Positions 1 to 35,638 of a stretch of DNA of 39,417 nt are shown piece by piece (positions within the stretch are counted from its first letter, which is position 1; each line of letters starts with the position of its first letter). This stretch comes from a virus (taxonomy: Duplodnaviria > Caudoviricetes), in IMG/VR virus record IMGVR_UViG_3300017780_004221, positions 1 through 39,417 of that record. One strand, 5' to 3'. The notes beneath the pieces were generated by a model that made no database searches, was not told where the DNA came from, and worked only from the letters and a program-made list of their open reading frames with translations. A program made the position numbers and the translations under genes.

Positions 1-123
1 CAGGAGTACGAAATAATCGATTAACCATAATGGCAATACCAATAACACGGGCAGAATACGAAAAGAAATTCGGGAAACCTCCTGTTGCTGCGACTTCCAC
101 TGCCCCTATAAAGATTACGCGGG
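1..123. repeat. Terminal direct repeat (assembly overlap of a circular or circularly permuted genome), copy 1
   Basis: 1-123 is identical to 39295-39417 (caggagtacg...attacgcggg). The ORF 37855-39318 and the start of the ORF at 30 read across the junction. Confidence 0.97.
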
Positions 124-2666
124 CAGAGTACGAGGCAAAGTTCGGGAAACCGGCACAAGCGCAGTCCCCTACCGCAAACATCCCAGTAATAAAACAACTT
201 TCTGCGGCAGGTGTTGGTATTGGTAGCCAGATTGGTAAAGCAGGACTGGGACTTGGGCAGGCAGCACTTAAGGGTGTCGGGGCTTTAGGTAACGTACTGT
301 CTCCAGGTACTGCTGCACGATATACAGAGCCTCTCGTAAGGAATATCGAGGGCATAAAGCAGAAAGTATATACTGATCCTTTCAAGCAGCAGCTTGAGTC
401 TACATCAGGTAAAATTGGTACAGGTGTGGGAGCAATTATTCCATATGTCGCTCCAACAGGAGCAATTACGAAGGCGCAAGCAGGAATTACGGGCGCAATA
501 TCTAAGATCCCGGTCGCTGGTAATCTGGCTAAGTTTGGCAAGGGCGCGCTAGGCGTAGCTGCTAGGGCAGTTCCAGAAGCGATTGGTGCAGGAGCTGTAG
601 GACTTGCCGTATCGGGAGGCGACACAGAACGGGCGAAGCGGGACGCTCTGCTCGGAGGCGCTTTTTCAGCGGGACTTGGCACCGTTGGCGCAGTGGGACG
701 TGGAGTTAAGGATAGCGGTCTGGCCCAGAAGGTACTGTCTAAGACGACGGGTATATCCAATCCTACTTTTGAAGCAGTAAAGAAAACTGGAATTATAAAA
801 GAAGCGACACCAGAACGAGCTTTGCAAAAAGGTAGAGAAGCAGTAGTTGGACTACGAACAAAGAATACAAAAATGTGGCAAGAGAGTCTTCCAAAAATTG
901 CTGATGAATATGAAGGACTGAGGATGGGACTTACTGAAAATCAAATGAAAAACTTTGCAAAAGTTGCGGACGAGTTTGGTATCAATGAGGATCTGTTGCC
1001 GCAAAATTTAAAGAATATGTCTGCTATCGAGTCCATGAATCTAATGAAGGCATTGAACGAAATTGATGGATTGGCAGCGACCGTATCTCCAAGAGGGGCA
1101 TTGATCCGAAGTCTAAAGAAGGAATTACGACCGGAGATTATCAGGTCATTTGGAGGTGAAAAGGGTAAAGTGGCCGAACTATGGAAAAACTACGCAACGA
1201 AACAGACCATACTTGATAATATGGACTCCATCGTCAAAGCATATAAGACAAATCCTACCCAGACAGTAACTGCAAAGAACAGACTTATGGCCATATTTGA
1301 CGAGAATAAGCCAGAGTTCCTAAAGGCAGTGAAAGAGATTGAAAAGGAAATGGGTATTGACATCACTTCTGAGGTGGCATCCACGAAGTTTCAGACACTT
1401 CTGCCAAAGGGCATATTAAAGGCGGACGGTGGACTTCCTACAAAGGCGGGAATAGTGGACAAACTTGTATCGGCACTCCTAATACCATTCACAAGCCCAA
1501 GATTGGCAGGAAAACTGGCACTTCCCTCAAAGGGGACTGTCGGTGAGATAGAGGCTCGGGTTTTTGGAGACTATGGTAATACGTCCAAGAGAAGTACTAC
1601 ACCCATTACAAGCCAAGAGAGTAGTATGACTACTCCGATTGCGCCTAGTATAAACAATAATATTGATAGCATACCTGCCACTCTACAATCATCTGCAAAT
1701 AAATCAAGTTTACCTGTGGATAAACCTAAGTTTGATCCTACAAAACAAGGCGGATTCGTCTCTATCGGCAAAAGGACGGTAAAGGAGATACCTGAGACCA
1801 CTAAGGCGGAGCTGTATAACGCAATCAAGTTCCTTAAGGGAGAGAAAAGTCCGATAACTGAGTCGGATTGGACGAAACTAGCCAAGAAGTTCGAGATAAA
1901 CGAGAACCAGCCGCTTGCTTCGGTAGTTAAAAGAATTGAGACCATATTGGACAAGACAAAGACTAAGACGGTTTTGCCTAAACCTAACAAACAGGGCGGT
2001 TACATAGCGCTTCCGTCAGCCAAGGAGGCGAAGAAGTTCGTATCGGGCGTTACTCCTGCGAAGGTGGTTACGGTTGCGGCAGGCCTCGGAGCAGGCAACA
2101 GAGTCCTATCCGATCAGATGGAAAGGACCGAAAAAAAGGCATTTGAGAAGGGTACGGCCAACATGCCCGTACAAGCTCCAAAAATGCCCGTAACCAAGAG
2201 TAATGCCCCATTGCAGGCATTCGTACCAAAGAGGTATGTACCAGCCGTACAGGAGGCTGTACAGGGTACAAGAATTAAACCGGCTGAACTTGCCGCTCTC
2301 GTTAACAGCGAGAACGGATGGTGGGACGAGACGCTTGTAAACGCAACAGGCACAGACACAGGACTTGGACAACACAACGCCGCAACCTATGAGGATATCA
2401 ACCGACTTTACAAGAAAAAGTACGGAAAGAGTTATAATAGAAAGAACGGGGAGGAGAACTTGAAAGCAACCGCTCTATGGCTCGATCACCTCATGGATAG
2501 AGAAGGTATAAACAGCCTTGAAGACGCAGTTAAGGCATACAGAATCGGTGTAGCGGGGCTGATGGCGGTCAGACAAGGTAAGGGCACAGGGGCGTTTACA
2601 GAAGCCCAGTTAAGGAGCATGGCAAACGACAAGCTCAAATCTTTTAAGGAATTTCTAAACTCATAA
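30..2666 (+). CDS. Internal virion/DNA ejection protein with C-terminal lytic transglycosylase (SLT-like) domain
   Basis: 878 aa; Ala/Gly-rich helical N-half. C-terminal SLT motifs: ALVNSEN (catalytic Glu), GLGQ (GLMQ-like), AYRIG (AYNAG-like). Follows another ejection-like gene. Confidence 0.75.
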   Translation: MAIPITRAEYEKKFGKPPVAATSTAPIKITRAEYEAKFGKPAQAQSPTANIPVIKQLSAAGVGIGSQIGKAGLGLGQAALKGVGALGNVLSPGTAARYTEPLVRNIEGIKQKVYTDPFKQQLESTSGKIGTGVGAIIPYVAPTGAITKAQAGITGAISKIPVAGNLAKFGKGALGVAARAVPEAIGAGAVGLAVSGGDTERAKRDALLGGAFSAGLGTVGAVGRGVKDSGLAQKVLSKTTGISNPTFEAVKKTGIIKEATPERALQKGREAVVGLRTKNTKMWQESLPKIADEYEGLRMGLTENQMKNFAKVADEFGINEDLLPQNLKNMSAIESMNLMKALNEIDGLAATVSPRGALIRSLKKELRPEIIRSFGGEKGKVAELWKNYATKQTILDNMDSIVKAYKTNPTQTVTAKNRLMAIFDENKPEFLKAVKEIEKEMGIDITSEVASTKFQTLLPKGILKADGGLPTKAGIVDKLVSALLIPFTSPRLAGKLALPSKGTVGEIEARVFGDYGNTSKRSTTPITSQESSMTTPIAPSINNNIDSIPATLQSSANKSSLPVDKPKFDPTKQGGFVSIGKRTVKEIPETTKAELYNAIKFLKGEKSPITESDWTKLAKKFEINENQPLASVVKRIETILDKTKTKTVLPKPNKQGGYIALPSAKEAKKFVSGVTPAKVVTVAAGLGAGNRVLSDQMERTEKKAFEKGTANMPVQAPKMPVTKSNAPLQAFVPKRYVPAVQEAVQGTRIKPAELAALVNSENGWWDETLVNATGTDTGLGQHNAATYEDINRLYKKKYGKSYNRKNGEENLKATALWLDHLMDREGINSLEDAVKAYRIGVAGLMAVRQGKGTGAFTEAQLRSMANDKLKSFKEFLNS
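1571..1672 (-). CDS. Nested antisense 33-aa hydrophobic membrane peptide (MLSILLFILGAIGVVILLSWLVMGVVLLLDVLP)
   Basis: ATG at 1672, TAG at 1571. Almost entirely hydrophobic. Preceded by its own promoter-like sequence. The overlapping + frame becomes S/T/P/I/N-rich low-complexity text exactly here. Confidence 0.6.
   Translation of the reverse strand: MLSILLFILGAIGVVILLSWLVMGVVLLLDVLP
1680..1723 (-). promoter_or_regulatory. Sigma70-like promoter plus DnaA-box-like site for the nested antisense gene
   Basis: Minus strand: TTATCCACA (1715-1723), 7 nt, TTGATT (1702-1707), 16 nt, TAGAGT (1680-1685), 7 nt, ATG. Confidence 0.55.
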
Positions 2667-5600
2667 TGAACCCACAACAAATACAACCAGAGGAAGACTA
2701 TAACGGAGACATTTTAGTTGATGCCACTCTTGAACAAAACAATAAGCTTGATGAACTCAATGATACTAACGAGATACAGGCGGAGGGGGTTATAAAGACC
2801 AACGAAAAGTTGGACGATTTAAATGCGACGGCGGATTTGATATTAGAGAAAATGACAGAAGAGAAAGAGGAGCCTATTAATACAAAACTCTCTTTTGAAA
2901 TTGATGGTGCGCAAATCACGACTATTGAAGGACCAAAGGGTGACAAAGGAGATAAGGGTGATAAAGGAGATAAGGGCGAGGCTGGTTTACAAGGTAAAAC
3001 TGGCAAACAAGGTCCGAAGGGTGACAAAGGAGATAAGGGTGATACAGGAGACGCTGGACCACAGGGAATACAGGGAATACAAGGCTTTCCTGGTAAACAA
3101 GGTCCCAGAGGAATTGATGGAACAGACGGTAAAGACGGTAAGGACGGTAAGGACGCACAGGAAGTCGCCGTTGACGCTCTTGTAAAAGAAGTAAAAGACG
3201 CTTTTTCATTTGATGAGATTAAAGAAGAGATAACCAGTGTGCATAATCGTGTATCAAAGATTGCAAGCAAAACTTATTCCCTTGTTGAACTTGATGACGT
3301 CAACCTGACGGGACTTACTCAAACTAACGGAAAGTATGATTTAGGATCAGGTGGTGGGGGTGGTGCTTCGGCGTTCACTGATCTCATTGATGTACCTTCT
3401 TCTTATGCTGGTTCTGCCCTAAAGGTGGTACAGGTAAATGCAGGAGCCACAGGATTGGAATTTGTCACAATTTCAGGAGGCGGGGATGCTTTGGTAGCCA
3501 ACCCACTTTCACAATTTGCAGCAACAACCTCACTCCAGCTCAAAGGTGTTATATCTGATGAAACAGGATCTGGTGCTCTTGTTTTTGCTGATACTCCAAC
3601 ATTGGTTACACCAGTTCTAGGAGTAGCAACAGCAACTTCAATCAATGGTGCAACTATTACTTCAGGAACATTAAATGGTTCAGTAACAGGTACAAATACA
3701 GGTGACCAAACGACGATTGTAGGCATTACGGGTACAAAAGCACAATTTGATACAGCCGTTACAGATGGGAACTTCTTATATGTAGGAGATGTAACCACTA
3801 ACGCCACTCATACAGGAGAAGTTACTGGTTCAGGAGCATTAACGGTAGATAAAACGGCGATTACAAATAAAACACTTGTTACGGCAGAAGCAGGAGATAA
3901 AATCCTAATTGCAGACGTGTCTGATTCAGAAAACCTCAAGTACGTCACAGCTCAAACCATTGCTGACCTCGCCACAGGAGGAGTATCTGACGGAGATAAA
4001 GGAGACATCACTGTATCAGCATCTGGAACTGTATGGAGCATAGATAACGCAGTCGTAGACATCGCCAACCTTTCAGCTACTGGTACTCCTTCTGGAACTA
4101 CTTTTCTTCGAGGAGATAACACATGGACGACACCAGCAGTAAGCGGCGATGTATCGAAGGTCGGTACGCCAGTTGACAACCAAGTAGGTGTATGGACAGG
4201 TGATGGAACACTAGAGGGAGATACTGCTTTCACTTTTGACACTACAACAAACTTTTTAACCGCTAATGGTAACCTAAGTCTAGCAACAGGAGGTTTCCTA
4301 GGATTTACTGGGGGTACTACGGTAGATACAACAAACTACTCTTTATTTGGCAATGCCACTTTAACACTCTTAAATGCTCGTTCAGGAGGTTCAATAGGAT
4401 TTAGAGTAGCAAATACAGACGTTGCTAACTTTACAACTACTGGAGGATTTGGGTTCGGATCTACTTTTTATAACCTTGATCCAGGAGCAAACAATATGAC
4501 AGTTGAAGGCAACCTTGGTGTTGGTGCATCTGCTCCAGCAACTAAACTTGATATAAACGGAGTAACTACCTTTAGGGGGAACATAATTGCAGGTACAGAT
4601 AACACCTATGATATAGGAGCATCAGGTGCTACACGACCACGAACAGGGTACTTTGGTACAAGTGTTATTGCACCAGCAGCAACATTTGCAAACTCTCTAA
4701 CAGGTTCGTACCTTACTGCGTCAGAAATGCTTATAACAGATGGCTCAAAGAATGTGGTATCAGCACCAGTTGCTACATACCCAAGTCTAACCGAATTGTC
4801 TTATGTGAAAGGAGTTACATCAGCAATACAAACTCAATTTACGGGTAAAGCAAATACATCTGGTGCTCTCACACAATTTGTTGGAAACGGAAACTATAAG
4901 GTTTGGTATTCTGATGGTTCGGGAGATGTTATAGAACTTGCTCTTGGTGCAGACGGAACGTACCTAAAATCAAATGGAGCTTCTTCGGCACCAAGTTTTG
5001 CTACACCAGCAGGTTCAGGTGACGTTTCAAAAGTAGGAACACCAGTCAATAACCAAATAGGTGTATGGACAGGAGATGGGACAATTGAGGGAGACACTAA
5101 TCTTAACTTTGATACTTCTACGGACACATTATCTACAGTAAATTTGGCTATTACAGGAACTATTGGAGTAGATATTACTTCACCTATTGCTAAAATTGAT
5201 GTTGTTGAGAACACAACATTTCCACAAACTTTACTTGGTTTGAGAAAAGAAACAGCGGGAGATTGGGGTATTAGTCTTGGTAATGAAACGATTGCTAATC
5301 TGTATATTGGTGCGGTCGATAACTTACCAACAGTGCAGTCCCGTTATTTCTGGAGAGCAAACTACAACACTGCAGGAGTCGCTTCAAGTACATTTAGACC
5401 AGTTGATACATCTTTGACAACTATTCCAGTTGTTGAAATTCAAGGAGTAGCAAGTACAACTGCTAATTATTTTAGTGTTACTACAAGCGGAGGGTCAATG
5501 GGAGACATATTTACAATTAAGTCTTCAGGAAACGTGGGAGTAGGAACTACTTCGGCGACAACAGGAAAGATGGAAGTTGTTGGTGGGGCATCAATTCCAG

Positions 5601-6736
5601 CAGTTTTTACTACAACAGGACCAGAAATAGCAAGATTTATAGCAGATGACCAGTATGGAGGTTTTCGTGTATGTACAACAAATACAACAGACGGGACACC
5701 TTATGTATCTTTTGCTACTGGTGCAAACATAGATGGAACAAGTTACGGAACACAGAAAGCCTATATTGCGTACTGGGGAGATACAGACGCATATGCGTCT
5801 GTTGGGTATAGCTCAGGAACTCATGCAATTGTTTGGAAAACAGGAGGAGCAACAGCAGGAAACATTGGAATTGGAACAACAAGCCCAAGTGTCAAACTAG
5901 AGGTGAGCGGGGCTACCCCCTCTTTTGGGATAATAGATACAGGTGGCACAAATGAGATGTTTAATGGTGTTAACTTCTCCTTCGGAGGAGGAACCATTCA
6001 TTATGCTACAGTAGCAATTAACCGCGACCCAGGAACTGGAACTTTTGTAAATACGGGGAGGGCAGCATCACAAATTAACTTTGAAAGTGCTGTAGGAAAC
6101 GCAGATATTGCTTTCTATACACATACTTCAAACAACACAACACCACTGGAAAGAATGAGAATACTTGGAAATGGAAAAGTTGGTATTGGTGAAGTTGCCC
6201 CGTCTGCATTCTTACATGTGTTAGGCACGACTGAGCAAATCCGAACAGGATATGATGCTTCTAACTACTACTCGACTACTGTATCCTCAGCAGGAGCAGT
6301 GACGTTCAATGCAGTGGGGTCTGGATCCCTATTCACCTTTTCGGATAACGTTATTGTAACAACAGCAGGAACAGCATCAGGAAGCGTACTAACGAACGAC
6401 GGAACACAGACAGTCACAAACAAAAGGGTTACCAAGAGGACGGGGACGACTACCTCATCAGCAACTCCTACCATCAATACGGATAATGTGGATTTCTACT
6501 CAATTACGGCACAAACGGTAGACATTACATCGTTTACCACAAACCTTTCAGGAACCCCTACGGATGGTCAGACGTTATGGATTGCTATTACAGGTACAGC
6601 AGCACGAGCGATTACTTGGGGGTCTTCGTTTGAGGCTTCTACTGTTGCGCTACCGACAACAACGGTAACGACAGCACGGCTTGACGTTGGGTTCATTTGG
6701 AACGCAAGCAAGTGGAGATGTATAGCGGCGGTTTAA
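2666..6736 (+). CDS. Long tail fibre/adhesin with N-terminal collagen-like (Gly-X-Y) region
   Basis: 1356 aa; GDKGDK/GPQG collagen repeats near the N-terminus, Thr/Gly/Ser-rich beta modules, repeated GN(V/I)G(I/V)GT fibre motifs. Confidence 0.8.
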   Translation: MNPQQIQPEEDYNGDILVDATLEQNNKLDELNDTNEIQAEGVIKTNEKLDDLNATADLILEKMTEEKEEPINTKLSFEIDGAQITTIEGPKGDKGDKGDKGDKGEAGLQGKTGKQGPKGDKGDKGDTGDAGPQGIQGIQGFPGKQGPRGIDGTDGKDGKDGKDAQEVAVDALVKEVKDAFSFDEIKEEITSVHNRVSKIASKTYSLVELDDVNLTGLTQTNGKYDLGSGGGGGASAFTDLIDVPSSYAGSALKVVQVNAGATGLEFVTISGGGDALVANPLSQFAATTSLQLKGVISDETGSGALVFADTPTLVTPVLGVATATSINGATITSGTLNGSVTGTNTGDQTTIVGITGTKAQFDTAVTDGNFLYVGDVTTNATHTGEVTGSGALTVDKTAITNKTLVTAEAGDKILIADVSDSENLKYVTAQTIADLATGGVSDGDKGDITVSASGTVWSIDNAVVDIANLSATGTPSGTTFLRGDNTWTTPAVSGDVSKVGTPVDNQVGVWTGDGTLEGDTAFTFDTTTNFLTANGNLSLATGGFLGFTGGTTVDTTNYSLFGNATLTLLNARSGGSIGFRVANTDVANFTTTGGFGFGSTFYNLDPGANNMTVEGNLGVGASAPATKLDINGVTTFRGNIIAGTDNTYDIGASGATRPRTGYFGTSVIAPAATFANSLTGSYLTASEMLITDGSKNVVSAPVATYPSLTELSYVKGVTSAIQTQFTGKANTSGALTQFVGNGNYKVWYSDGSGDVIELALGADGTYLKSNGASSAPSFATPAGSGDVSKVGTPVNNQIGVWTGDGTIEGDTNLNFDTSTDTLSTVNLAITGTIGVDITSPIAKIDVVENTTFPQTLLGLRKETAGDWGISLGNETIANLYIGAVDNLPTVQSRYFWRANYNTAGVASSTFRPVDTSLTTIPVVEIQGVASTTANYFSVTTSGGSMGDIFTIKSSGNVGVGTTSATTGKMEVVGGASIPAVFTTTGPEIARFIADDQYGGFRVCTTNTTDGTPYVSFATGANIDGTSYGTQKAYIAYWGDTDAYASVGYSSGTHAIVWKTGGATAGNIGIGTTSPSVKLEVSGATPSFGIIDTGGTNEMFNGVNFSFGGGTIHYATVAINRDPGTGTFVNTGRAASQINFESAVGNADIAFYTHTSNNTTPLERMRILGNGKVGIGEVAPSAFLHVLGTTEQIRTGYDASNYYSTTVSSAGAVTFNAVGSGSLFTFSDNVIVTTAGTASGSVLTNDGTQTVTNKRVTKRTGTTTSSATPTINTDNVDFYSITAQTVDITSFTTNLSGTPTDGQTLWIAITGTAARAITWGSSFEASTVALPTTTVTTARLDVGFIWNASKWRCIAAV
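3686..4126 (+). repeat. Fibre module A, copy 1 (441 bp; copy 2 at 9234-9674)
   Basis: 147-aa TGTNTGDQ...LRGDNTW block nearly identical in both fibre genes; contains a 68-bp exact DNA match (3800-3867 = 9348-9415). Confidence 0.95.
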
Positions 6737-12112: not shown

Positions 12113-12432
12113 TGGACGAACACGTCAACATTACGAATGTTGAGATTATGAGAAACGACATGTCGTACATGAAAAACGACCTTGCGGAAATTAAGGCTAC
12201 CTTAAAAATTGTTCTTGAGAAGTATGTCCACAGAGAGGAAATGGCATCTAGGTTTGATAGAGTACAAGCCGAACTTGATAAACGTTTTGATGGTGCTCAT
12301 GCAAGAATAGATATGAAATGCGATAAAGAAGACTTAGAAAAAATAAACACTATCCTATCTCGACTTAATTGGATAATTATAACAGGTGTAATGGGAGGTA
12401 TTCTTGCACTTGTGATTAGTTATTCACAATAA
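12112..12432 (+). CDS. Coiled-coil protein with C-terminal transmembrane anchor (lysis-associated)
   Basis: Heptad-like N-terminus, C-terminal WIIITGVMGGILALVISY; translationally coupled to the holin. Confidence 0.65.
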   Translation: MDEHVNITNVEIMRNDMSYMKNDLAEIKATLKIVLEKYVHREEMASRFDRVQAELDKRFDGAHARIDMKCDKEDLEKINTILSRLNWIIITGVMGGILALVISYSQ

Positions 12433-12463
12433 AAGATTGACACAACTGCATAGGTGTTATAAT
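12420..12463 (+). promoter_or_regulatory. Promoter with upstream DnaA-box-like site
   Basis: TTATTCACA (12420-12428), TTGACA (12437-12442), 15 nt, TGt-TATAAT (12458-12463), 6 nt, ATG 12470. Confidence 0.75.
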
Positions 12464-12469
12464 ACCCTT

Positions 12470-12634
12470 ATGGAAAAAACAAACATCACGCCTGAACAGG
12501 CACTTAATAATTTGTATATTGCATCGACGAGAGCATCAATGAGTAAAGTAGAACATGACGCCTGTCTTGAGTCGGCAAAAGTTCTACAAGAAGCAATCAC
12601 TCCTAAAAAAGAAATAACTAAGAAGCACGCTTAA
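12470..12634 (+). CDS. Small hypothetical protein (leaderless)
   Basis: MEKTNITPEQALNNLY..., 54 aa. Start refined from the TTG at 12437, which is the -35 box. Confidence 0.65.
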   Translation: MEKTNITPEQALNNLYIASTRASMSKVEHDACLESAKVLQEAITPKKEITKKHA

Positions 12635-14747: not shown

Positions 14748-15338
14748 ATGTTATGCAAAGCAAAAGGCTGTAGTAGAAAAGTTGTAGCAAAAGGTTGTTG
14801 TGACAAACACTATAGAAGGCTATGCAAGTACGGTTCGCTCACTATCCCACGAAGATGGGTCAATGCTGATTACAAATGTTCAGTAAAAGGGTGTTCAAAG
14901 AGAGCAAAGACAAAAAGGCTTTGTGTTGCTCATTATAATTTGTTGCTCAAGTGGGGGACACCAAAAACAATAAGGAAATATAGAGAAAAAAGAATTTGCA
15001 TAATGTGCGAAACCTCCTTTAAGCCAATCAGTACCAAAAATCAAAGGTTTTGCTCGAGAAAATGTTATTCCGAATATGTTAAGAAGCAAGGGAAAAGAAA
15101 ACCAATTGTCATGGACAGGAAATATAGGATGGTATATCTCCCAAATCATCCAATGGCAAATGCCAAGGGACATGTTTATGAACACAGGCTTGTTATGTCA
15201 GAACATCTAGGCAGGACTTTAAGCAGTGAAGAATTGGTACACCACATAAACGAAATACAGGACGACAACAGGATCGAAAATCTTTTACTGACCACTAGGC
15301 AGGAACACGTAAAATTCCATTGGAAAAACTGCAAGTAA
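14748..15338 (+). CDS. HNH homing endonuclease (HNH_3 type) with N-terminal zinc-binding repeats
   Basis: [12 protein letters not shown]...[16 protein letters not shown]...EHVKFH; CxxxGC...CxxHY repeats; TATAAT (14736-14741) lies 6 nt before ATG. Confidence 0.9.
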
Positions 15339-15487: not shown

Positions 15488-15510
15488 TTATACACAATAG
15501 GTGTCATACT
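15484..15510 (+). promoter_or_regulatory. Promoter of the accessory operon, overlapped by a DnaA-box-like site
   Basis: TTGTTT, 15 nt, TGt-CATACT; TTATACACA at 15488-15496. Shares ataggtgt before the -10 with the 12437 promoter. Confidence 0.5.
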
Positions 15511-15533
15511 TAATAGTACCGCTCATTGTAATC

Positions 15534-15638
15534 ATGAAAAAATTACTACTCCATATTGTCGTGGCGATTGCGGAGTTCGTCTTCGTTTTCGTCCTTGTTG
15601 CAGTGTATCTCCTCACCCCAAAAGAAAAAAAGAAATGA
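15534..15638 (+). CDS. 34-aa single-pass membrane peptide (MKKLLLHIVVAIAEFVFVFVLVAVYLLTPKEKKK)
   Basis: Below the ORF-track cutoff; hydrophobic core, basic ends; ATGA-coupled to the next gene. Confidence 0.65.
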   Translation: MKKLLLHIVVAIAEFVFVFVLVAVYLLTPKEKKK

Positions 15639-16988: not shown

Positions 16989-17195
16989 TTATATGTTTGG
17001 CGTTAGGGACAATAATACCCACATAAGACCGTATAAGACAGGAAGACCTACAAAGACAATCATAGAAACTTGGAATAGTGTTAGTCCTGTATCTTCTTTT
17101 TTAAACCCAAAGAAGTCGTCATTATCTGCGAGACGAAAATCTGCTTCAATCTTTTTTTTGGTCATTCGCTTTTTTCTAGTTTGTAAGTCTTTCAT
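16989..17195 (-). CDS. Small membrane protein
   Basis: 68 aa; basic N-terminus, C-terminal transmembrane segment. Confidence 0.65.
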   Translation of the reverse strand: MKDLQTRKKRMTKKKIEADFRLADNDDFFGFKKEDTGLTLFQVSMIVFVGLPVLYGLMWVLLSLTPNI

Positions 17196-17314
17196 TTTGT
17201 TTTTTCGTCAATTAGTCTGATAAGTGTTTTGCCTTCTTTCTTTGATAATTTCTTGAGGGACTTATACGCCTGTAGGCTTATGCGTATTGTCCTGTATTCT
17301 CTCTTTGTAGGCAT
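17192..17314 (-). CDS. 40-aa ribbon-helix-helix (Arc/CopG-like) regulator (leaderless)
   Basis: MPTKREYRTIRISLQAYKSLKKLSKKEGKTLIRLIDEKTK: beta strand TIRIS, helix, G, helix. Not in the ORF track; ATGA-coupled to the next gene. Confidence 0.7.
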   Translation of the reverse strand: MPTKREYRTIRISLQAYKSLKKLSKKEGKTLIRLIDEKTK

Positions 17315-17320
17315 GTATAT

Positions 17321-17401
17321 ATTGTATGCAATTGTGTGCAATAGTCAATGTACTACCTGTGTATAACCCAATATTGTCTTATATTATAAAGGTATTATAC
17401 T
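17321..17401. promoter_or_regulatory. Divergent promoter pair with central DnaA-box-like site
   Basis: Minus: TTGACT (17343-17348), 16 nt, TACAAT (17321-17326), 6 nt, ATG. Plus: TTGTCT (17374-17379), 16 nt, TATACT (17396-17401). TGTGTATAA at 17358-17366. Confidence 0.75.
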
Positions 17402-18481: not shown

Positions 18482-19704
18482 TTTAGTGCATCATTAAAAT
18501 CCTCTCCTAATTCTAATCTTTTAAATACTCTTTGATCCATACTATCTTTGTAATCACTTACAATATTAACATACACGTTCTTTTTTATATTATTTGCTCT
18601 CTGTATACGCCCCTGCATTTGATTGTAGTCTTCCCACTTGTAATCGTTAGATGCAAACACTATTGCTTCACACTTTGGAAGTGACCATCCTTTTGATATA
18701 CCTGCCTGCACTATGAGTACATACTTTTTTGATGCTTTGAGGTCTTCATTTAATTCTTTTCTATTCTTTGTTTTACCATTAAGGACATATGCTTCTGGTA
18801 TTGCTTCCTTTATTTTTTCAATCTGCGATGTCCATTTAGCTACTACTATCATTGTGTCGAATTGGAGTGCATAGTCTTTTATAGCTTCTATTTTGTTGTC
18901 CTTTATGTAAATGTCCTTTTGAAATTCGTTACCCAACAGGACACCATTCTCAATCTGATGTCTTTTAGAGTTTTTTGCACTTGGTGTCTCATAGTTCATA
19001 AGTTCTTCTTTGAGGTATATTTTTTGATCTGATGTAAGTTCTACTTTTTTAGTTATATATGTTTGCTCTGGCACATCGTTCCAGTCACTTAATTTACCCG
19101 TATACCCTAATTTCTTTACCAAATTTGCCAAACGTTCTTCTGTACCTTTTTTAACAGAATAGATTGGTGTGTAACTCCTCATCGGAAGTTCAAAATAAAA
19201 AGCATCTCTAAAATCGTGGTATTGATTTAAGTTAAGTTGATTTAGTAGCACACCCGCCGCAAACACAGTGAGCGGTGTTTTTGTAATAGTAGCTGATACA
19301 AGATAAAATCTTTTTGGGTTTATATCGTCTATAAACTTTTTTAGTTTAGTAAACACCTTGCTTGTATCTGGGTATTTTACATAGTTCTTTTGTTTTTCTG
19401 TTGGTCTTATACCCATTGCCCATGTTGCTTCATCTAATATTACAGTGTCATATTTTCTATGCTCAAACTTATCTAATCTAAAGTCTTCCTTTGATATAAC
19501 TGTGAGTTGTTTCTCTGCTCCCATTTCTTGAAGTTCTTTTTGCCATATCTCTTCATCACGTTGTTGCTTTTCACATATAACTAATATATCTCCTTCAGCA
19601 AGTGAGAGTGCTATTCTTGTTTTACCTGATCCACACCCAAGCCATAGACCAGTGTGTAATGGATCATCTAATATGATCTGTTTTTGATGTTTATAAAGAC
19701 TCAT
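18478..19704 (-). CDS. Superfamily 2 (SNF2/DExD-like) helicase
   Basis: LYKHQ Q-motif, GCGSGKT Walker A, ILDEAT, SAT motif III, QMQGRIQR motif VI. Start refined to MSLYKHQ. Confidence 0.88.
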   Translation of the reverse strand: MSLYKHQKQIILDDPLHTGLWLGCGSGKTRIALSLAEGDILVICEKQQRDEEIWQKELQEMGAEKQLTVISKEDFRLDKFEHRKYDTVILDEATWAMGIRPTEKQKNYVKYPDTSKVFTKLKKFIDDINPKRFYLVSATITKTPLTVFAAGVLLNQLNLNQYHDFRDAFYFELPMRSYTPIYSVKKGTEERLANLVKKLGYTGKLSDWNDVPEQTYITKKVELTSDQKIYLKEELMNYETPSAKNSKRHQIENGVLLGNEFQKDIYIKDNKIEAIKDYALQFDTMIVVAKWTSQIEKIKEAIPEAYVLNGKTKNRKELNEDLKASKKYVLIVQAGISKGWSLPKCEAIVFASNDYKWEDYNQMQGRIQRANNIKKNVYVNIVSDYKDSMDQRVFKRLELGEDFNDALK

Positions 19705-20329
19705 AGGTTGTGAGATCCTCAAGATCTTCGAGTGAAAGAACGACGGACGAAGGTATTACAAACCTGCATGGTATACCTGCGTACTCATCATCACCGAACG
19801 ACTCACCAATCCTTATGATTGCGTACACTGATCCCTTATGCGTGATCACGATGTCCTCGCTGCGGATTATGTCCATATCATCCTCCTTAAAACCTTCCAC
19901 CATTTCTATTTCTTTTTCAGTTGAAGGGTACATACCATTTTCCCAGGAATCTGCCTCTACCCAGTGCAATACCTCATCCCACAATGCCCCCATATTTGAT
20001 CCAGATGCCGCCGATTTGTTTATGGGGTAGTCCATGTATACCCCGCATGTTCTGTTTGACCTCCATTCAATCCCGAGGGCCTTTGCACAGTCGTTTTCCT
20101 TTGACTTTTCACCTTCTATCAACTTGTTAAATATATATTCCTTGAGGAGTTTGTCACCAAGCGTTTTGGGACGCTTGTAATCAGTGACTACCTGGTTTAC
20201 TGTCGCCCTGCTTATATTAAAGAACCTTCCCACCTCTGATTGGGAGAATCCCTTGCGCACTACTAGGTCTATAATAGCGTCGTTTCGAGCACCGATAATT
20301 TTTTGTTGTTCTATTGTTGGTCTTGCCAT
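19691..20329 (-). CDS. Protein with N-terminal helix-turn-helix (leaderless)
   Basis: GFSQSEVGRFFNISRATVNQVV is an HTH; promoter lies 6 nt upstream of ATG. Confidence 0.7.
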   Translation of the reverse strand: MARPTIEQQKIIGARNDAIIDLVVRKGFSQSEVGRFFNISRATVNQVVTDYKRPKTLGDKLLKEYIFNKLIEGEKSKENDCAKALGIEWRSNRTCGVYMDYPINKSAASGSNMGALWDEVLHWVEADSWENGMYPSTEKEIEMVEGFKEDDMDIIRSEDIVITHKGSVYAIIRIGESFGDDEYAGIPCRFVIPSSVVLSLEDLEDLTTYESL

Positions 20330-20335
20330 ATGTGT

Positions 20336-20399
20336 AGTTTATACCTGTGTATAACTTATGTCAAGGTTACTTGCAACTTTATTTTTGACAGGCTATACT
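20336..20399. promoter_or_regulatory. Divergent promoter pair of the replication module
   Basis: Minus: TTGACA (20359-20364), 17 nt, TAAACT (20336-20341), 6 nt, ATG, with TTATACACA (20346-20354) in the spacer. Plus: TTGCAA (20371-20376), 17 nt, TATACT (20394-20399). Confidence 0.85.
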
Positions 20400-23264: not shown

Positions 23265-23609
23265 ATGAGCGAAACAGCAGACAACACTGAAAAAGTGCGT
23301 GGTATACCTTTTCAGAAAAATGACCCAAGAATCAACCTTGAGGGCAGGCCAAAAGACACTCCTGAATCAAAGATTATTAAGAAGGCTACTAAGGAACTTA
23401 TAGCCGAGTATAAGGAGGCTCTAGGCAGCGCTTTACCACTTATCAGACCCATACTGATCGCCAAGGCATTGGAGGGTGATATGACGGCGATAAAGGAGAT
23501 ACATGATAGAGTTATGGACAAGGCTAAGCAGCCGACCGACGTTACGACCAACGGCAAGGATCTGCCTATGCCGATACTTGGAGGGATGATGCAGGATGCC
23601 AAAGACTAA
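23265..23609 (+). CDS. terS: Terminase small subunit
   Basis: PFQKNDPRINLEGRPK (DUF5681-like), KALEGDMTAIKEIHDR, DVTTNGKDL; upstream of terL. Confidence 0.75.
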   Translation: MSETADNTEKVRGIPFQKNDPRINLEGRPKDTPESKIIKKATKELIAEYKEALGSALPLIRPILIAKALEGDMTAIKEIHDRVMDKAKQPTDVTTNGKDLPMPILGGMMQDAKD

Positions 23610-24024
23610 AGAACAAATAAAAGAATATAACCAGGAATACTCAAAAAGACCTGAGGTTATTGAGAGAGCAAGAATAAGGAACCAGGCTTTTAGGGAAAAA
23701 AGAAAGGCTTACAAAAAGACAACTTTAGGAAGAGAAGCTGAAAACAAGTATAGAAGGGCAAATTATCACAAGATTAGAAAGGAAAAAAGGCTTAAGGAAA
23801 GGTATGGGATGTCACTTGATGACTACCATCTTATGTCTTTGAGACAGAATGGGGTATGTGCAATCTGCAAGTGTGCTCCAAAAACACCACTACATGTCGA
23901 TCATTGTCACACAACAGGAAGGGTCAGAGGATTGTTGTGTGGTTCTTGCAACAGAGCACTAGGACTTCTGAAGGACAACTGTAAGTTTTTAGAGAATGCA
24001 ATAACCTATCTCATAGAAAGATAA
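23596..24024 (+). CDS. Endonuclease VII-family (homing) endonuclease
   Basis: YGMSLDDY...QNGVCAIC...LHVDHCHTTGRVRGLLCGSCNRALG. Confidence 0.9.
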   Translation: MPKTKEQIKEYNQEYSKRPEVIERARIRNQAFREKRKAYKKTTLGREAENKYRRANYHKIRKEKRLKERYGMSLDDYHLMSLRQNGVCAICKCAPKTPLHVDHCHTTGRVRGLLCGSCNRALGLLKDNCKFLENAITYLIER

Positions 24025-25259: not shown

Positions 25260-25802
25260 ATGGTAAGTCCACACAAATTATTTGGTAGGCTCGGAAATTC
25301 AATGTTTCAATACGCTACGTTGATAGCACTCGCAGACACGGCGGAGTCGGACATATATTTTCAAGATATAAAATGGTTTGAAAATCATCAGGACAAGGTC
25401 CGGGAGATGTTTAATATTGGCATAGGATCAACACCTAAGATAGGCATACATGTGAGACGAGGAGACTATATCCAGTTCTCACATCAATACCCAAACCTGA
25501 TGGAGACCGACTACTATAGGAAGGCTATGGCAATGTTCAAGGAAAAGGACTTCATCGTGTTCTCGGATGACATCGAGTGGTGCAAGAAGCAGGACATCTT
25601 CAAGGGGTGCGAGTTCTCGGAAGGGAAGACGGACGTGCAGGATCTCAACCTTATGGCCTCATGCAACGGACTGATCATGGCAAACTCAACTTTTAGTTTT
25701 TGGGGAGCATATTTGGGACCTTCTAATAAAGTAGTTGTTTGCCCGAGACAAGAACTATGGGGTACGCCCATCTCATTACTGGATAAGTGGCACAAAATAT
25801 GA
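25260..25802 (+). CDS. Alpha-1,2-fucosyltransferase-like glycosyltransferase (GT11)
   Basis: GRLGNSMFQY, HVRRGDY, FSDDIEWCK and ANSTFSFWGAYL are GT11 signature motifs. Confidence 0.9.
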   Translation: MVSPHKLFGRLGNSMFQYATLIALADTAESDIYFQDIKWFENHQDKVREMFNIGIGSTPKIGIHVRRGDYIQFSHQYPNLMETDYYRKAMAMFKEKDFIVFSDDIEWCKKQDIFKGCEFSEGKTDVQDLNLMASCNGLIMANSTFSFWGAYLGPSNKVVVCPRQELWGTPISLLDKWHKI

Positions 25803-25972
25803 AAATAGAAATTTTAGACAGAAGAAAAGATAAGGATTTAGAGTGTTTTATTTTAACTACCAAAATAGATGATGTAGAATGTCTGTTTGCCATAAATAAA
25901 GAAGATAACTTTAATGATGTGGTTGATGCCTTTATTAAAAAAATTAGTGCTTTAAACATATGTCAAAAGTAA
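25799..25972 (+). CDS. Small hypothetical protein
   Basis: MKIEILDRRKDKD..., 57 aa; ATGA overlap with the GT11 stop; AT-rich. Confidence 0.5.
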   Translation: MKIEILDRRKDKDLECFILTTKIDDVECLFAINKEDNFNDVVDAFIKKISALNICQK

Positions 25973-26526
25973 CCATACTCATTCCGACTACTCCTGAAAG
26001 ACGGGAGCGACTACAGCAGACGATTGAATCAATCAGGGAGCATACGACATTACCATATAAGCTAACGATATATGAAAATAACTACGAAGGATACGTTAAG
26101 GCTATCCACACTCTTTTGGATGGGGTTGATGGCCTTGTGTGGTGTCTTAACGATGATGTCATTCTAAAGAATGATGCAGTAAAGATTCTATGCGACAAGT
26201 TTATCGAGCTGTACCCCAAATACAACGGGCTTCTTCAGCCAAAGGATGGCATACAGGAGGGAAATGTGGCGACCTTGCCGTTCTGTCACTCAAAGATAAT
26301 GAAAACTCTTACTCATGAAGGCTACCATCATAACTTCGCGGACCAGGAGTTCACTATGAGAATGAATGCTGCCGGACTGTACACCTATGTCCCGGAAGCC
26401 GTAGTGGAACACAACCACTGGATCAACGGCAAGGCCGAGCAGGACAGGACGTATTCGGATTCGCAAATACTGTTCCAGAAGGACCAAGAATTATTCGCTA
26501 ATAGATTACAAAATGGCTTCAACTAA
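25960..26526 (+). CDS. Glycosyltransferase family 2
   Basis: VTILIPT...LQQTIESI, CLNDD (DxD-like), FADQEF, VPEAVVEH. Confidence 0.85.
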   Translation: MSKVTILIPTTPERRERLQQTIESIREHTTLPYKLTIYENNYEGYVKAIHTLLDGVDGLVWCLNDDVILKNDAVKILCDKFIELYPKYNGLLQPKDGIQEGNVATLPFCHSKIMKTLTHEGYHHNFADQEFTMRMNAAGLYTYVPEAVVEHNHWINGKAEQDRTYSDSQILFQKDQELFANRLQNGFN

Positions 26527-27151
26527 ACCAAAGGTGATGATCGCAGTCCCGACTATGGGAGAAATCAATACGCTACTCGTCGTCATGATTACAAGGTGGA
26601 TTGCGGAGGCTTTCAATACCGGAAAGTATAACGTGTCATTCTATCCAACAACGTGCGTATCGCCTGTCGACAGGGCAAGAGAGGAGATAGTGGACGTATT
26701 CCTTGAGTCGGACTGTACCCACTTGTTCTGGATCGACTCGGACACGGTTCCGAAGTACGAGGCACTCACCACTCTTCTGTCCCATGACGCTGATATCGTC
26801 TCAGGACTGACGGCCATCATCGTCTATGACGAGACAAGGAAGGATTCGGACTCCAACGGATTCAAGAAGAAATGGAACTGCGTGGGCATGGACGAGAAAC
26901 ACCTGACACCCAACACCGGCGTGCATAAGATTCTCGGAGCGGGAGGTTCGTGCCTCATGGTCAAGCGGGAGGTATACGAGAAGCTGGAAAGGCCGTGCTA
27001 TAAATTCATCTATAAGGACGACAACGGGAAGGATGCTAACATCAGCGAGGACATCCATTTCACGCTTATGGCGCGGGCGAAGGGCTTTGAGCCTATCTGC
27101 GACACGTCGGTGATCGCCGCTCATTACAAGGGTATCTTCTGGGACCTCTAG
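26513..27151 (+). CDS. GT-A fold glycosyltransferase
   Basis: VMIAVPT, AREEIV, THLFWIDSD (DxD), GGSCLMVKREVYE, SEDIHF. Confidence 0.85.
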   Translation: MASTKPKVMIAVPTMGEINTLLVVMITRWIAEAFNTGKYNVSFYPTTCVSPVDRAREEIVDVFLESDCTHLFWIDSDTVPKYEALTTLLSHDADIVSGLTAIIVYDETRKDSDSNGFKKKWNCVGMDEKHLTPNTGVHKILGAGGSCLMVKREVYEKLERPCYKFIYKDDNGKDANISEDIHFTLMARAKGFEPICDTSVIAAHYKGIFWDL

Positions 27152-27152
27152 C

Positions 27153-27713
27153 ATGGAGCCATTCAGGGAACAGATGCGGTACGAGTACGACTTGGACTGC
27201 GAAAGCTACGTCATAGACCTCGGAGGGTATGAGGGGAGGTTCGCAAGCATATTGCACCAGGCGTATGCGTGCGACGTTGACGTATACGAACCGATAGACG
27301 CGTTCTTTCTCGACTGCGTGAAGAATCTGCAACCCTATCCGATAGTGAGGGTATTTCATTATGGGGTGGGAGGCAGCGAGAGGACTGAGACATTTCACGT
27401 CGAGACTGACCGAACGGGGGTATTTGCCAACGGAAACACGGAGGAGGTACGCATAAAGGACATAAAAGACGTTATCGGGGACAGGAATGTCGACCTAATC
27501 AAGATAAATATCGAGGGAATGGAGTTTGAAGTGCTTGAAAGGGTGCTGGAACTCGGCTTGCAGTCAAAATTGAGGAACATACAGGTGCAGTTCCATAAGA
27601 TTGCCCCCGATTCCGAGGAAAGATACGAAAAAATACGCGACGAACTGCTCAAGACGCACAAACTTACGTTCGATTACCCGTTCGTGTGGCAAAACTTTAC
27701 TCTCAACGCATAG
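27153..27713 (+). CDS. FkbM-family SAM-dependent methyltransferase
   Basis: VIDLGGYEG, YEP, DLIKINIEGMEFEVL, IQVQFH. Confidence 0.88.
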   Translation: MEPFREQMRYEYDLDCESYVIDLGGYEGRFASILHQAYACDVDVYEPIDAFFLDCVKNLQPYPIVRVFHYGVGGSERTETFHVETDRTGVFANGNTEEVRIKDIKDVIGDRNVDLIKINIEGMEFEVLERVLELGLQSKLRNIQVQFHKIAPDSEERYEKIRDELLKTHKLTFDYPFVWQNFTLNA

Positions 27714-32704: not shown

Positions 32705-33324
32705 TCGCATCAGATATAATCACAAAGTTTGAACTGTTTATGGATGACACTACAGACCTTTCCTCTACCGAGGAACTGGACCTGCTGAACAAGATTTACT
32801 TCAGGGTGTGCATGGAGCGTCCGTGGGAGTTCCTGAAAAAGGCATTCTCCGGTACGACATCATCAAGCGTTTCATATGTAACACTACCTTCTGACTTCTC
32901 GTTCCTTACTCAGAACTACAACTATACCGATGCTTCATACTCGGCATCACGACCCGTCGTATTCGTAGGAACGACTTATCGACCATATGAAGTGGTTTCA
33001 TGGAGTGACCGAAGGCAGTATCGAGACCAGGATGGGTATTGCTATATCGACATTGCGAATGGACTTCTCTACTTTACTCTCCAGCCTACAGCGGCAGAAG
33101 CCGTAGAGTTCGACTATGCGTCCCTACCTACTGCCCTTACGCTGTCTGATACCCCTGTAATCCCCTCAAGGTTCCACGATATGCTCTATCATGGCATGTG
33201 TGTCGAGGACAATGTTATACAGCAATCTGACCGTGCCAAATCTTACTTGCCAGAAAATCAGCAAGCCTACAAAAGATATTTTGATGATTTATGCTATTTC
33301 AATTCAATGCTTATTCAACAATAA
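32701..33324 (+). CDS. Head-tail adaptor protein
   Basis: LLNKIY...RPWEFL...YVTLPSDF...PVIPSRFHDML pattern of podovirus adaptors; position after MCP. Confidence 0.7.
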   Translation: MIASDIITKFELFMDDTTDLSSTEELDLLNKIYFRVCMERPWEFLKKAFSGTTSSSVSYVTLPSDFSFLTQNYNYTDASYSASRPVVFVGTTYRPYEVVSWSDRRQYRDQDGYCYIDIANGLLYFTLQPTAAEAVEFDYASLPTALTLSDTPVIPSRFHDMLYHGMCVEDNVIQQSDRAKSYLPENQQAYKRYFDDLCYFNSMLIQQ

Positions 33325-33325
33325 T

Positions 33326-33754
33326 ATGCCAAAATCTAAAACAAGAATTTATAGAATATATAGAAACATGCTCAAAAGATGTTTTTTTGAGAAATATGAA
33401 CATTTTCATAGATATGGAGGAAGAGGTATAACAGTAGATAAAAAATGGTTATCTTTTGAGGGATTCTTTGAAGATATGCATTTGGGGTACGATGATAATA
33501 TGACATTAGATAGAATAGACAATGATGGTAATTATTGTAAAGAGAACTGTAAATGGTCAACAATGAAAGAACAAACATTAAACAGAAGTTCAAATAGGAT
33601 ATTATCTCTAGATGGTGTTTCAATGACACTAAAAGAATGGTCTGATAAAACAGGAATTAGACAGACTACCATTACACAAAGAATAGATTATGGAGGCTGG
33701 TCGGTTCGTAAAGCATTATCGATGAAGAATTTTTATAAACCAAATCTTGTATGA
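33326..33754 (+). CDS. HNH homing endonuclease
   Basis: YRNMLKRC...YGGRGITV...FFEDM...TLDRIDNDGNYCKENCKW; AT-rich; start refined to ATG 33326. Confidence 0.9.
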   Translation: MPKSKTRIYRIYRNMLKRCFFEKYEHFHRYGGRGITVDKKWLSFEGFFEDMHLGYDDNMTLDRIDNDGNYCKENCKWSTMKEQTLNRSSNRILSLDGVSMTLKEWSDKTGIRQTTITQRIDYGGWSVRKALSMKNFYKPNLV

Positions 33755-35619
33755 ATAAGAAAATCAGAGCTTTTTCAAAGGGCATACACAACCTCTTCTC
33801 TGATGAGATTATCCCAGAGGACGCGCTTTCAAATGCACAAGGTTGGGTGACAAAGGATGGGGTAATCGAACTTGCACGAGGTCGTGTGACATTTGGAGAT
33901 ACGGGAACTACTGGTTCATGTTCTGATATTCATATAGGATATAAAGTAAACGGAACACCTGTATATTTTAAGAAATCAGGTACAACCATAAAGGTCCTTG
34001 TGGGTTCCACTTGGACAAACCTTATCACGGGCCTTACAGAGGATGCCGCAACATCGTTCACCAACTACTCCTCAATTGCAGGGAACTTCACCTATATTTA
34101 CTCAACAGACGGGATTTGGAAGGTTGTTACAGCCAACCCAACATCATTCAGCACTATGTATGACGCGGCAAAGAACTTCAAGGGAGTCGCATTTATCGAC
34201 AAAGGACGTGCTATCCTCTGGGGAAGGGTCAAGGACAAGACGGGTTTGTACGGCTCATGGATAGACGCACAAAACGCAACTACCTATACAACTGTTTCAG
34301 GAGAGGCTCTTGTAGCCGTCGAGTCTGGAACCCTAGCCTTCAAGGCTGGAGGCGCGACACGGACTTGCTTTGCGGTGACTATTACCGACACTTCGTCAGG
34401 CGAGGTCTTCACCGACAACTATGACGGTACTCTTACGGGTTCAATCAGTGGTACAGGAACGATTAACTATACTTCAGGGGTGTTCACCATCACAGGACAG
34501 ACAGGAGCAGGAACAGCCTCATACCAGTGGGAAAACTCGAACGTCAAGGGAGTGACCGACTTCACCTTTACGGCAACACGAGTGGCGTCGGAAGGCTTTA
34601 TCTTTCCCCAGGACATCGGAGGAGACGGCATTCAGACGGTCATCCCGCTTGAAGGGAAGTACTTCTCGCTTAAGGAGAGAAGCGTGTATACCCTTGAGAT
34701 TGGAGAGACAGACCTGACGGCAGTAAACGAAGTGTTTCGTTCAAACATCGGAGTACCGTCGCGAAAGGGAGCCGTAGCGACATCGAAGGGAATCATCTTC
34801 ATGGACATCGCCAACGGGGAAATGCCAGTTATGAGATTCATTACTCGTAACCCGACAGGAGACAACTTCGACACGCTCCCAATTTTCCCTCAGTTTGATT
34901 TCTCTAACTACTCATACGCCGATACCGCCCTTACAGTGTACGGAGACTACGTTCTTGTGGCCTGTAAGTCAGAAGGAGCCTCCGCGAACGATACAATCCT
35001 ATTGTGCAACTACGTCAACGATACAGTGGACATTCTCGCTTACGAGGCACGAAGCTTCATGCAGTACAACGGAAATCTATACACGGGTGACTCGCTCTCG
35101 ACCTCGGTGTACACCACAATGAATGGATTCGATGACCTCGGATACGTCGTCGAGAACTTTGCAATAACAAAAGGTGAGTTCTACGACCTTGAGGAGCTCA
35201 AGAAGACGAAGAGACTGAGGCTTAAGGGACTTATCTCAACGGGGCAGAACTATTCGGTGTATGGTTCGTTTGATAACGAGGCCTACACCCTCCTTGGAAC
35301 CGTATCAGGAGACGCTACGTATGTAGATATGGAAAACCCTAACACGATCGGACTCAACCTTGTCGGTTTTGACGTGATAGGAGGCTCGGACTCGCAGGTG
35401 GCTTATCCGTACTATGCGGAACTGAAGATAAAGACCCCGAAGTTCAGGAAGATATACCTGAAGTTCGTCGCGAACGGGTTCGGGCACGCCTCGATCGAGT
35501 CGCTTGAGCACAGGGACATCTGGCTGTACGAGGACAAGATGCCAAAGAGATTTAGGCAGAAGCAGAACGTTTCAATTAATACAGGGACCGATACTGACTT
35601 GCCAGTACCCAACTATTAG
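33751..35619 (+). CDS. Tail nozzle/DNA stabilization protein (P22 gp10 or T7 gp12-like)
   Basis: 622 aa, beta-rich; N-terminal FSKGIHN...IPEDALSNAQG; position after the adaptor. Confidence 0.65.
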   Translation: MNKKIRAFSKGIHNLFSDEIIPEDALSNAQGWVTKDGVIELARGRVTFGDTGTTGSCSDIHIGYKVNGTPVYFKKSGTTIKVLVGSTWTNLITGLTEDAATSFTNYSSIAGNFTYIYSTDGIWKVVTANPTSFSTMYDAAKNFKGVAFIDKGRAILWGRVKDKTGLYGSWIDAQNATTYTTVSGEALVAVESGTLAFKAGGATRTCFAVTITDTSSGEVFTDNYDGTLTGSISGTGTINYTSGVFTITGQTGAGTASYQWENSNVKGVTDFTFTATRVASEGFIFPQDIGGDGIQTVIPLEGKYFSLKERSVYTLEIGETDLTAVNEVFRSNIGVPSRKGAVATSKGIIFMDIANGEMPVMRFITRNPTGDNFDTLPIFPQFDFSNYSYADTALTVYGDYVLVACKSEGASANDTILLCNYVNDTVDILAYEARSFMQYNGNLYTGDSLSTSVYTTMNGFDDLGYVVENFAITKGEFYDLEELKKTKRLRLKGLISTGQNYSVYGSFDNEAYTLLGTVSGDATYVDMENPNTIGLNLVGFDVIGGSDSQVAYPYYAELKIKTPKFRKIYLKFVANGFGHASIESLEHRDIWLYEDKMPKRFRQKQNVSINTGTDTDLPVPNY

Positions 35620-35638
35620 ACCGTGCTATAATAGCATT

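Follow-up and report, generated by a model that had tools for sequence, protein, structure and literature searches.

The window analysed here is the whole of IMG/VR virus record IMGVR_UViG_3300017780_004221, a complete podophage genome of 39,417 nucleotides (nt) with a 123-nt terminal repeat. Within it we examined a short antisense open reading frame (ORF), together with its promoter-like elements, that lies inside a large ejection-type gene, here called the host gene. The features of this locus are:

30–2666 (+): host gene, 878 amino acids (aa), second large ejection-type protein by synteny, open across the antisense unit
30–1571 (+): conserved all-helical core, aa 1–514; nearest named cluster is 74% PF26808 Phage_P22_gp16
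1572–1730 (+): linker rich in S, T, I, N and P, the opposite-strand counterpart of the mini-gene with its promoter
2247–2567 (+): SLT transglycosylase cargo domain (Pfam SLT, aa 740–846), replaced by different cargo or missing in relatives that share the core
1571–1672 (−): mini-gene, a hydrophobic ORF of 33 aa, predicted from hydropathy to be a single-pass or hairpin membrane peptide
1680–1685 (−): −10-like hexamer TAGAGT, 7 nt ahead of the ATG, a putatively leaderless geometry
1702–1707 (−): −35-like hexamer TTGATT, 16-nt spacer; TTGACC in a related contig variant
1715–1723 (−): accessory DnaA-box-like 9-mer TTATCCACA, 7 nt upstream of the −35; also at four more promoter-like sites of the phage

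Read along the minus strand, the box (1723–1715) is followed after 7 nt by TTGATT (1707–1702), after 16 nt by TAGAGT (1685–1680) and after a further 7 nt by the ATG at 1672, from which 33 codons run to a TAG at 1573–1571. The 9-mer is called DnaA-like by comparison with the DnaA-box consensus. The peptide has 28 uncharged residues, one Asp near its C-terminus, and no Lys or Arg. The original prediction had described this anatomy, an uninterrupted plus-strand frame and a 13-mer that recurs elsewhere in the genome, and all three hold: every coordinate of box, −35, −10, ATG and TAG checks, the host frame is open throughout 30–2666, and the 13-mer recurs with 12 of 13 matches at 17366–17354 and 20354–20342. 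It had also described the layout as the same as that of other promoters of the phage, which proved to be similar but not identical, with a 15-nt spacer at 12420 and the box inside the spacer at 20354. The antisense frame stays open upstream of ATG 1672, as far as a TTG at 1990, but the resulting 139-aa TTG-started frame (1571–1990, minus strand), which passes through the promoter and across a module breakpoint near 1730, was deemed a shadow rather than a gene.

Within the phage, no other stop-free antisense stretch in the 27 long genes is as hydrophobic as the 33-aa ORF. It ranks first among 13,797 stop-free antisense windows of 19 aa (Kyte–Doolittle hydropathy 2.92; next 2.63) and among 9,741 windows of 28 aa (2.85; next 2.39). 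Synonymous recoding of the host codons attained the observed hydrophobicity in 7 of 20,000 trials, and recoding with the gene's own codons in 17 of 3,000; ATG, promoter and box arose together in 14 of 100,000 recodings, and with a hydrophobic ORF as well in 4 of 100,000, figures that are not genome-wide p-values, since the site was chosen after the fact. Serine codons in the span are of the AGY type in six of seven cases, compared with 12 of 43 in the rest of the host gene (p 0.006); read from the opposite strand, AGY gives Leu and TCN gives Asp or Glu. The contigs of eight runs held no variants within 1571–1672. The two frames are closely coupled: an antisense codon is made by complementing positions 2 and 1 of a host codon and position 3 of the one before, and host T, N/K, I/M, P and A give V, F/L, I/M, G and A on the opposite strand. 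Because of this geometry, a linker made of T, N, K, I, M, P and A is hydrophobic in antisense by itself, and 29% of synonymous recodings of the span are already hydrophobic (reaching a hydropathy of 2.2).

Relatives with DNA also speak for a real gene. Using an unnamed cargo module, 160 loci (L numbers) were fetched and 111 non-redundant genes kept; 43 of the 154 module ORFs, either duplicates or with less than 120 aa upstream, were left out before counting. Under a strict rule that places a −35/−10 promoter 5–8 nt ahead of an antisense ATG, 8 of 12 promoter-led antisense ATG-ORFs were hydrophobic, compared with 103 of 1,627 without the promoter (odds ratio 30, p 1.4e-7). Among 159 neighbouring long genes the corresponding count was 0 of 3, and ten codon shuffles gave 0–1 strict-promoter hydrophobic ORFs per shuffle. 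Antisense promoter-like sites as such were not enriched (273, against a mean of 321 in 20 shuffles), whereas an ATG placed 5–8 nt after the −10 was (20/273 versus 210/6419 in shuffles, p 0.002). Nine of these 20 ATGs opened a hydrophobic ORF, compared with 6 of 210 in shuffles, and the excess of about ten ATGs at this distance equals the nine hydrophobic cases. Because ATG placement and hydrophobic ORFs are enriched and bare promoters are not, translation, rather than RNA alone, is indicated. We regard the 33-codon antisense frame as probably a translated gene.

Two different frames are used, with six strong cases in the frame of the window and five in a second frame, in which antisense hydrophobicity rests on host wobble bases. 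Synonymous shuffling was passed by L126, L132, L186 and L243 (3, 2, 0 and 0 of 3,000 shuffles, respectively) and weakly by L096 (33/3,000). The nested ORFs of L243 (5580–5936, minus strand, 118 aa) and L186 (6291–6461, minus strand, 56 aa), with 0/3,000 synonymous shuffles each, are larger membrane ORFs within cargo genes and are the best test cases of the family.

Mini-genes of this kind, with unrelated peptides, also occur outside the ejection gene. Free convergent mini-genes with near-consensus leaderless promoters follow the gene in L119/L178, L251 and L212 and precede it in L098, and in L001 a free 23-aa mini-gene lies directly after a core-only gene, whose protein shares the first 52 aa of the window protein at 62% identity. 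A hydrophobic antisense ORF was present in 6 of 16 downstream gaps of at least 70 nt, a count that has no control set. Behind the core-only ejection gene of L175, a consensus promoter and a long hydrophobic antisense stretch occupy 4800–5230 (minus strand); the start is ambiguous, and the stretch was left uncounted because start and promoter are not clear. Nested and free cases are interleaved on a FastTree tree, which is weak, with long branches and 95 of the 111 rows, and they are scattered over the cargo tree. The peptides range from 21 to 118 aa, in two frames and at differing places in the host gene.

The closest homologs with a tail are represented by protein only. The best back-read hydrophobic window of the whole protein starts at the core end (−5 to +35 residues) in nine of ten (7 clear, 2 weak), where about 0.5 would be expected, and P0003 has none; this is an indirect indication. 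Among more distant members, many proteins stop shortly after the core.

The mini-gene sits at the junction between the conserved core and an exchangeable C-terminal cargo. The family profile is matched by 1,157 representative proteins at E 0.001. Behind the core lies an SLT domain in the window and in P0001, ART-PolyVal in P0011, a weak GNAT in P0154 and a large unnamed module in P0002/6/7, while other relatives have none; in P0004 the linker is present and the cargo absent, and the protein ends just past the promoter. The module of alignment A2 (L094–L256), a widespread C-terminal region of about 430 aa in which many polar residues are invariant and for which Pfam has no match, probably represents an injected enzyme without a name. 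Near 1730 there is a module breakpoint, at which contigs of five other runs share the cargo side and differ upstream. Among these variants (30 letters each), X5–X8 are homologous and keep the −35 but not the box, and X3 is unrelated; one depth-3 contig end in X3 departs also at 1572, the antisense stop (10 letters only). The locking of the peptide into its gene, as first proposed, is weakened: the peptide is not permanently tied to one cargo, being absent, free-standing or replaced in relatives, and the breakpoint lies beside it.

An ejection role for the host gene is supported by gene order. In the window, the order is portal, SU10 adaptor, a 487-aa gene, the host gene and a fibre gene, and the same order is found in L001, L094, L111, L119, L175 and L384; the host gene is the last large gene between the head/tail-nozzle genes and the tail fibre of a podophage. 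Its two neighbours are:

37855–39318 (+): probable first ejection protein, 487 aa, next to the host gene across the 123-nt terminal repeat, with a weak link to PF16928 Inj_translocase (0.84)
2666–6736 (+): tail-fibre-like gene, directly downstream of the host gene

By language-model features, the cluster nearest to the core (the PF26808 cluster listed above) has a feature score of 0.96, with 176 shared.

These features recall SieA of phage P22, which is described (PMC10883804) as a protein of 162–164 aa with three predicted helices and a conserved cytoplasmic motif, encoded by a free-standing gene between genes 16 and 9. As in that account, we find a predicted membrane protein with a putative promoter of its own where ejection and tail genes meet, present in some kin phages only and differing strongly between them. 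The host gene resembles gp16, the target of SieA, by features, and the position of SieA is matched by nesting in the gp16-like gene here and by a free mini-gene right after it in L001, L119, L251 and L212. Unlike SieA, the product has 33 aa and no homology, it is wholly nested antisense in an open frame with leaderless geometry, and, unlike temperate P22, the window phage has no integrase found among the 41 ORFs scanned. By homology, and by the 160-aa three-helix form with its motif, the mini-gene was not found to belong to the SieA family; it may act in a SieA-like manner. Of the original prediction, a probable leaderless antisense membrane-peptide gene within an ejection-type gene is supported, and the likeness to SieA is strengthened by the gp16-like features of the host core and by the free counterparts directly behind the ejection gene.

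By analogy with SieA, exclusion by blocking of injection is the best candidate for the function of the peptide, at a confidence that falls just short of even. The host sigma-70 polymerase would read the mini-gene early, against the late operon, and the leaderless message would give a peptide inserted in the cytoplasmic membrane, where, in the manner of P22 SieA, it would obstruct the conduit through which superinfecting kin phages inject their DNA. As to its origin, a free convergent mini-gene behind a core-only ejection gene would have been overrun by an extended core frame, which was then fused to a cargo module, so that the mini-gene became linker; core-only L001 with its free gene, P0004 ending past the promoter and the fused window form the proposed series. 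In its full form, this reading says that Patescibacteria podophages repeatedly bury exclusion micropeptide genes in the very ejection gene they guard against, as core–cargo fusion swallows a convergent mini-gene, and we hold it only tentatively. At the same tentative level, one stretch of DNA might code for both an injector linker and its specific inhibitor, in a fast-changing lock-and-key family. The nesting may instead have arisen by de novo overprinting within a linker already present, which might account for the second-frame cases.

Antisense overlapping genes of bacteria and viruses, which likewise code on both strands, are usually read as new genes overprinted on old ones (review PMC12315717); here the small gene seems to be the older at the spot, with the long frame grown over it, repeatedly and in two frames. 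Phage polyvalent proteins, as presented in PMC5512222, resemble the host gene in that they are multi-domain, are injected and can swap their cargo (ART, lysozyme, unnamed domains); the main text of that paper does not contain the word 'antisense', and no description of nested genes was seen in it. T4 Imm and Sp and HK97 gp15 differ, in the descriptions given in PMC11436027 and PMC10883804, in being free-standing genes of other virion types, and they have no family match here. Searches of the open literature, supplements aside, brought up no account of membrane genes nested antisense within ejection genes.

A number of observations weigh against this interpretation. The thresholds of the family statistic were set after a first look at the 111-gene data, the strict unit is detectable in only 8 of 111 relatives and most lack it, and under a relaxed rule 15 of 41 nested candidates (137 loci) are hydrophobic. 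The promoter of the window itself passes only the relaxed rule; it is weak, with 8 of 12 consensus matches, and absent from a generic promoter scan. For the frame used in the window, the host residue largely dictates the antisense one and shuffling has low power, and most same-frame cases do not pass (of 3,000 shuffles, L111 2910, L130 2814, L094 944, L384 507, L099 256 and L115 125). The AGY bias is confined to the window and not seen in relatives. The peptides are mutually non-homologous, the only similar pair among all being the near-identical L119/L178 (the doubtful nested cases L147, L201 and L394 were excluded from this comparison), and they show no detectable homology to any family, the 33-aa peptide matching nothing in Pfam or PHROG. 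For the closest homologs, no DNA turned up in viral, metagenome or genome contigs or in phage records, so their peptides, starts and stops are back-read only; one search gave only L001 and L002 (N-terminal 52 aa). The link to gp16 is a feature score, the core having neither a hidden Markov model match nor a fold match in the PDB; searches with the core model (predicted local distance difference test 78) returned none there, and BFVD gave only unnamed or uncharacterised phage proteins. An integrase or clear lysogeny module was not found among the 41 window ORFs scanned, and a prophage state is not evident. Prediction of a complex between core and peptide scored 0.00 and gave no answer, its controls not being folded, and it counts neither for nor against. 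Finally, the box is rare: of the hydrophobic cases, it accompanies 1 of 15 that are nested and 1 of 4 that are free, and it is degraded in the nearest contig variant of the window, so that it is no fixed part of the unit, contrary to what had first been suggested.

Alternatively, the mini-gene could encode a real early membrane peptide with another role at the envelope, such as masking or jamming a host receptor or pilus, or tuning lysis or host contact, the ejection-gene linker being merely a tolerant spot for accessory genes. All the evidence for translation fits this equally well, and so does the diversity of the peptides, which are unrelated and vary in length, frame and position across the cargo tree. 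The phage also has another box-led membrane ORF, of 34 aa (15534–15638), far from the ejection genes. Yet the free forms recur at the flank of the ejection gene, a known site of injection-blocking genes according to PMC10883804, and none was seen in the 159 neighbouring long genes. We consider an envelope role unlikely, though the likeliest of the alternatives.

It is improbable that the promoter is what selection maintains, giving an antisense RNA against the late ejection message, with the hydrophobic ORF as a by-product of linker composition. No strong minus-strand terminator is listed downstream of the mini-gene, and a transcript could run antisense through the core; the share of recodings that are hydrophobic given the host residues would also fit. 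A published parallel is STnc6030 of phage BTP1, an antisense transcript over the 3' part of a DNA-injection gene that gives self-specific exclusion and that its authors read as RNA (PMC7067206). In the published account, it is non-coding, with only ORFs longer than 60 aa ruled out, and escape changes alter the injection protein (PMC7067206); unlike the mini-gene, it has its start within the tailspike gene and covers the end of the injection gene, rather than lying inside an internal linker (PMC7067206). An RNA role is opposed by the lack of enrichment of promoter-like sites alone, as against ATG placement and hydrophobic ORFs, by the wobble-level signal in the second frame and by the free-standing forms, which have little to pair with.

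Chance also has a small probability. An S/T/N/I/P-rich linker would yield a hydrophobic antisense frame, with coincidental matches to a weak promoter and a box, and the one-to-one coupling of the frames, the promoter missed by the generic scan and the 103 promoterless hydrophobic antisense ORFs all speak for it. Against it stand the top rank among about 13,800 windows, the AGY bias, the rarity of joint recodings and a family-wide coupling that is absent in controls and shuffles. Outside the family, a generic promoter-GGTATG pattern had 117 distinct viral sites (5 of 64 scan parts), one of them nested and none both nested and hydrophobic; the box-plus-promoter pattern in viral contigs, with 73 distinct sites of 90 loci, likewise gave none nested with a hydrophobic ORF.

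Least likely of all is a role as immunity partner to the cargo that is injected (here SLT), or as a type I toxin repressed by the sense message. Its place where core and cargo of a polyvalent-like protein meet, with cargo that varies, and the similar size of type I toxins speak for such a role. Against it, the peptides do not track cargo (the same module goes with unrelated peptides or none), P0004 has the linker and no cargo, the leaderless geometry leaves no regulatory 5' untranslated region (UTR), and neither an Rfam match in the window at E 0.1 nor the long structured 5' UTR and antitoxin RNA of type I toxins were found.

In prokaryotic systems, few protein genes that lie wholly within another on the opposite strand have comparative support, and such genes are discarded by gene callers. 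Recurrence across a large uncultured phage family, in two frames and with free forms at the same locus, gives a natural series for the growth of a long frame across a small one. Should the peptides block injection, they would form a large unannotated class of minimal (20–50 aa) conduit inhibitors, and antisense 'RNAs' at injection genes, such as STnc6030, would be worth re-reading as micropeptide messages. If exclusion genes are indeed buried in ejection genes, the family could be read from the odd composition of the linker.

In the genome, seven ATGs pass the relaxed promoter rule and three of them have the box nearby, namely the mini-gene and two comparators, a helix-turn-helix (HTH) gene and a ribbon-helix-helix (RHH)-like ORF:

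17192–17366 (−): box and TTGACT/TACAAT, ATG 6 nt later, 40-aa basic ORF, RHH-like by eye
19691–20368 (−): TTGACA/TAAACT, ATG 6 nt later, 212-aa HTH gene, box inside the spacer

At 12420–12634 (+), the box is followed by TTGACA and, after a 15-nt spacer, by TATAAT; a 54-aa ORF comes next, upstream of an endolysin-like gene, and the fifth box of the window (15488–15638, +) precedes the free-standing 34-aa membrane ORF mentioned above, which has a basic tail. In 81 genomes of the Patescibacteria phylum, the box lies 5–10 nt upstream of TTGAC in 50 cases, compared with 12 control hits; in 41 genomes of the phylum of a Clostridium genome the same layout gave 16 and 12. The roughly fourfold enrichment in the Patescibacteria phylum is uneven, with up to eight per genome (G009, G041, G046 and others). 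The box is an optional promoter element of the host type, and the 40-aa RHH-like or the 212-aa HTH product could be the box-binding protein in place of DnaA.

Because loci of the cargo module occur in Patescibacteria bins and the box-then-TTGAC layout is enriched in that phylum, we infer a Patescibacteria host for the window phage. Saccharibacteria/Patescibacteria bins hold 9 of the 21 genome loci with a related cargo module, and 6 of the 10 strongest, although these contigs may be co-binned phages. The listed holders of the window DNA are freshwater metagenomes. Besides the HTH and RHH-like genes, the genome encodes terminase, an SU10-type portal and adaptor, fibres, primase, helicase, glycosyltransferases and HNH genes. 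Between terminase and portal, at 25260–27713 (+), there are three genes resembling glycosyltransferases and one for an FkbM methyltransferase. Four HNH/endonuclease VII genes were noted (14748–15338, 23596–24024, 33191–33754 and 35504–36379), three of them inserted in the packaging and tail block.

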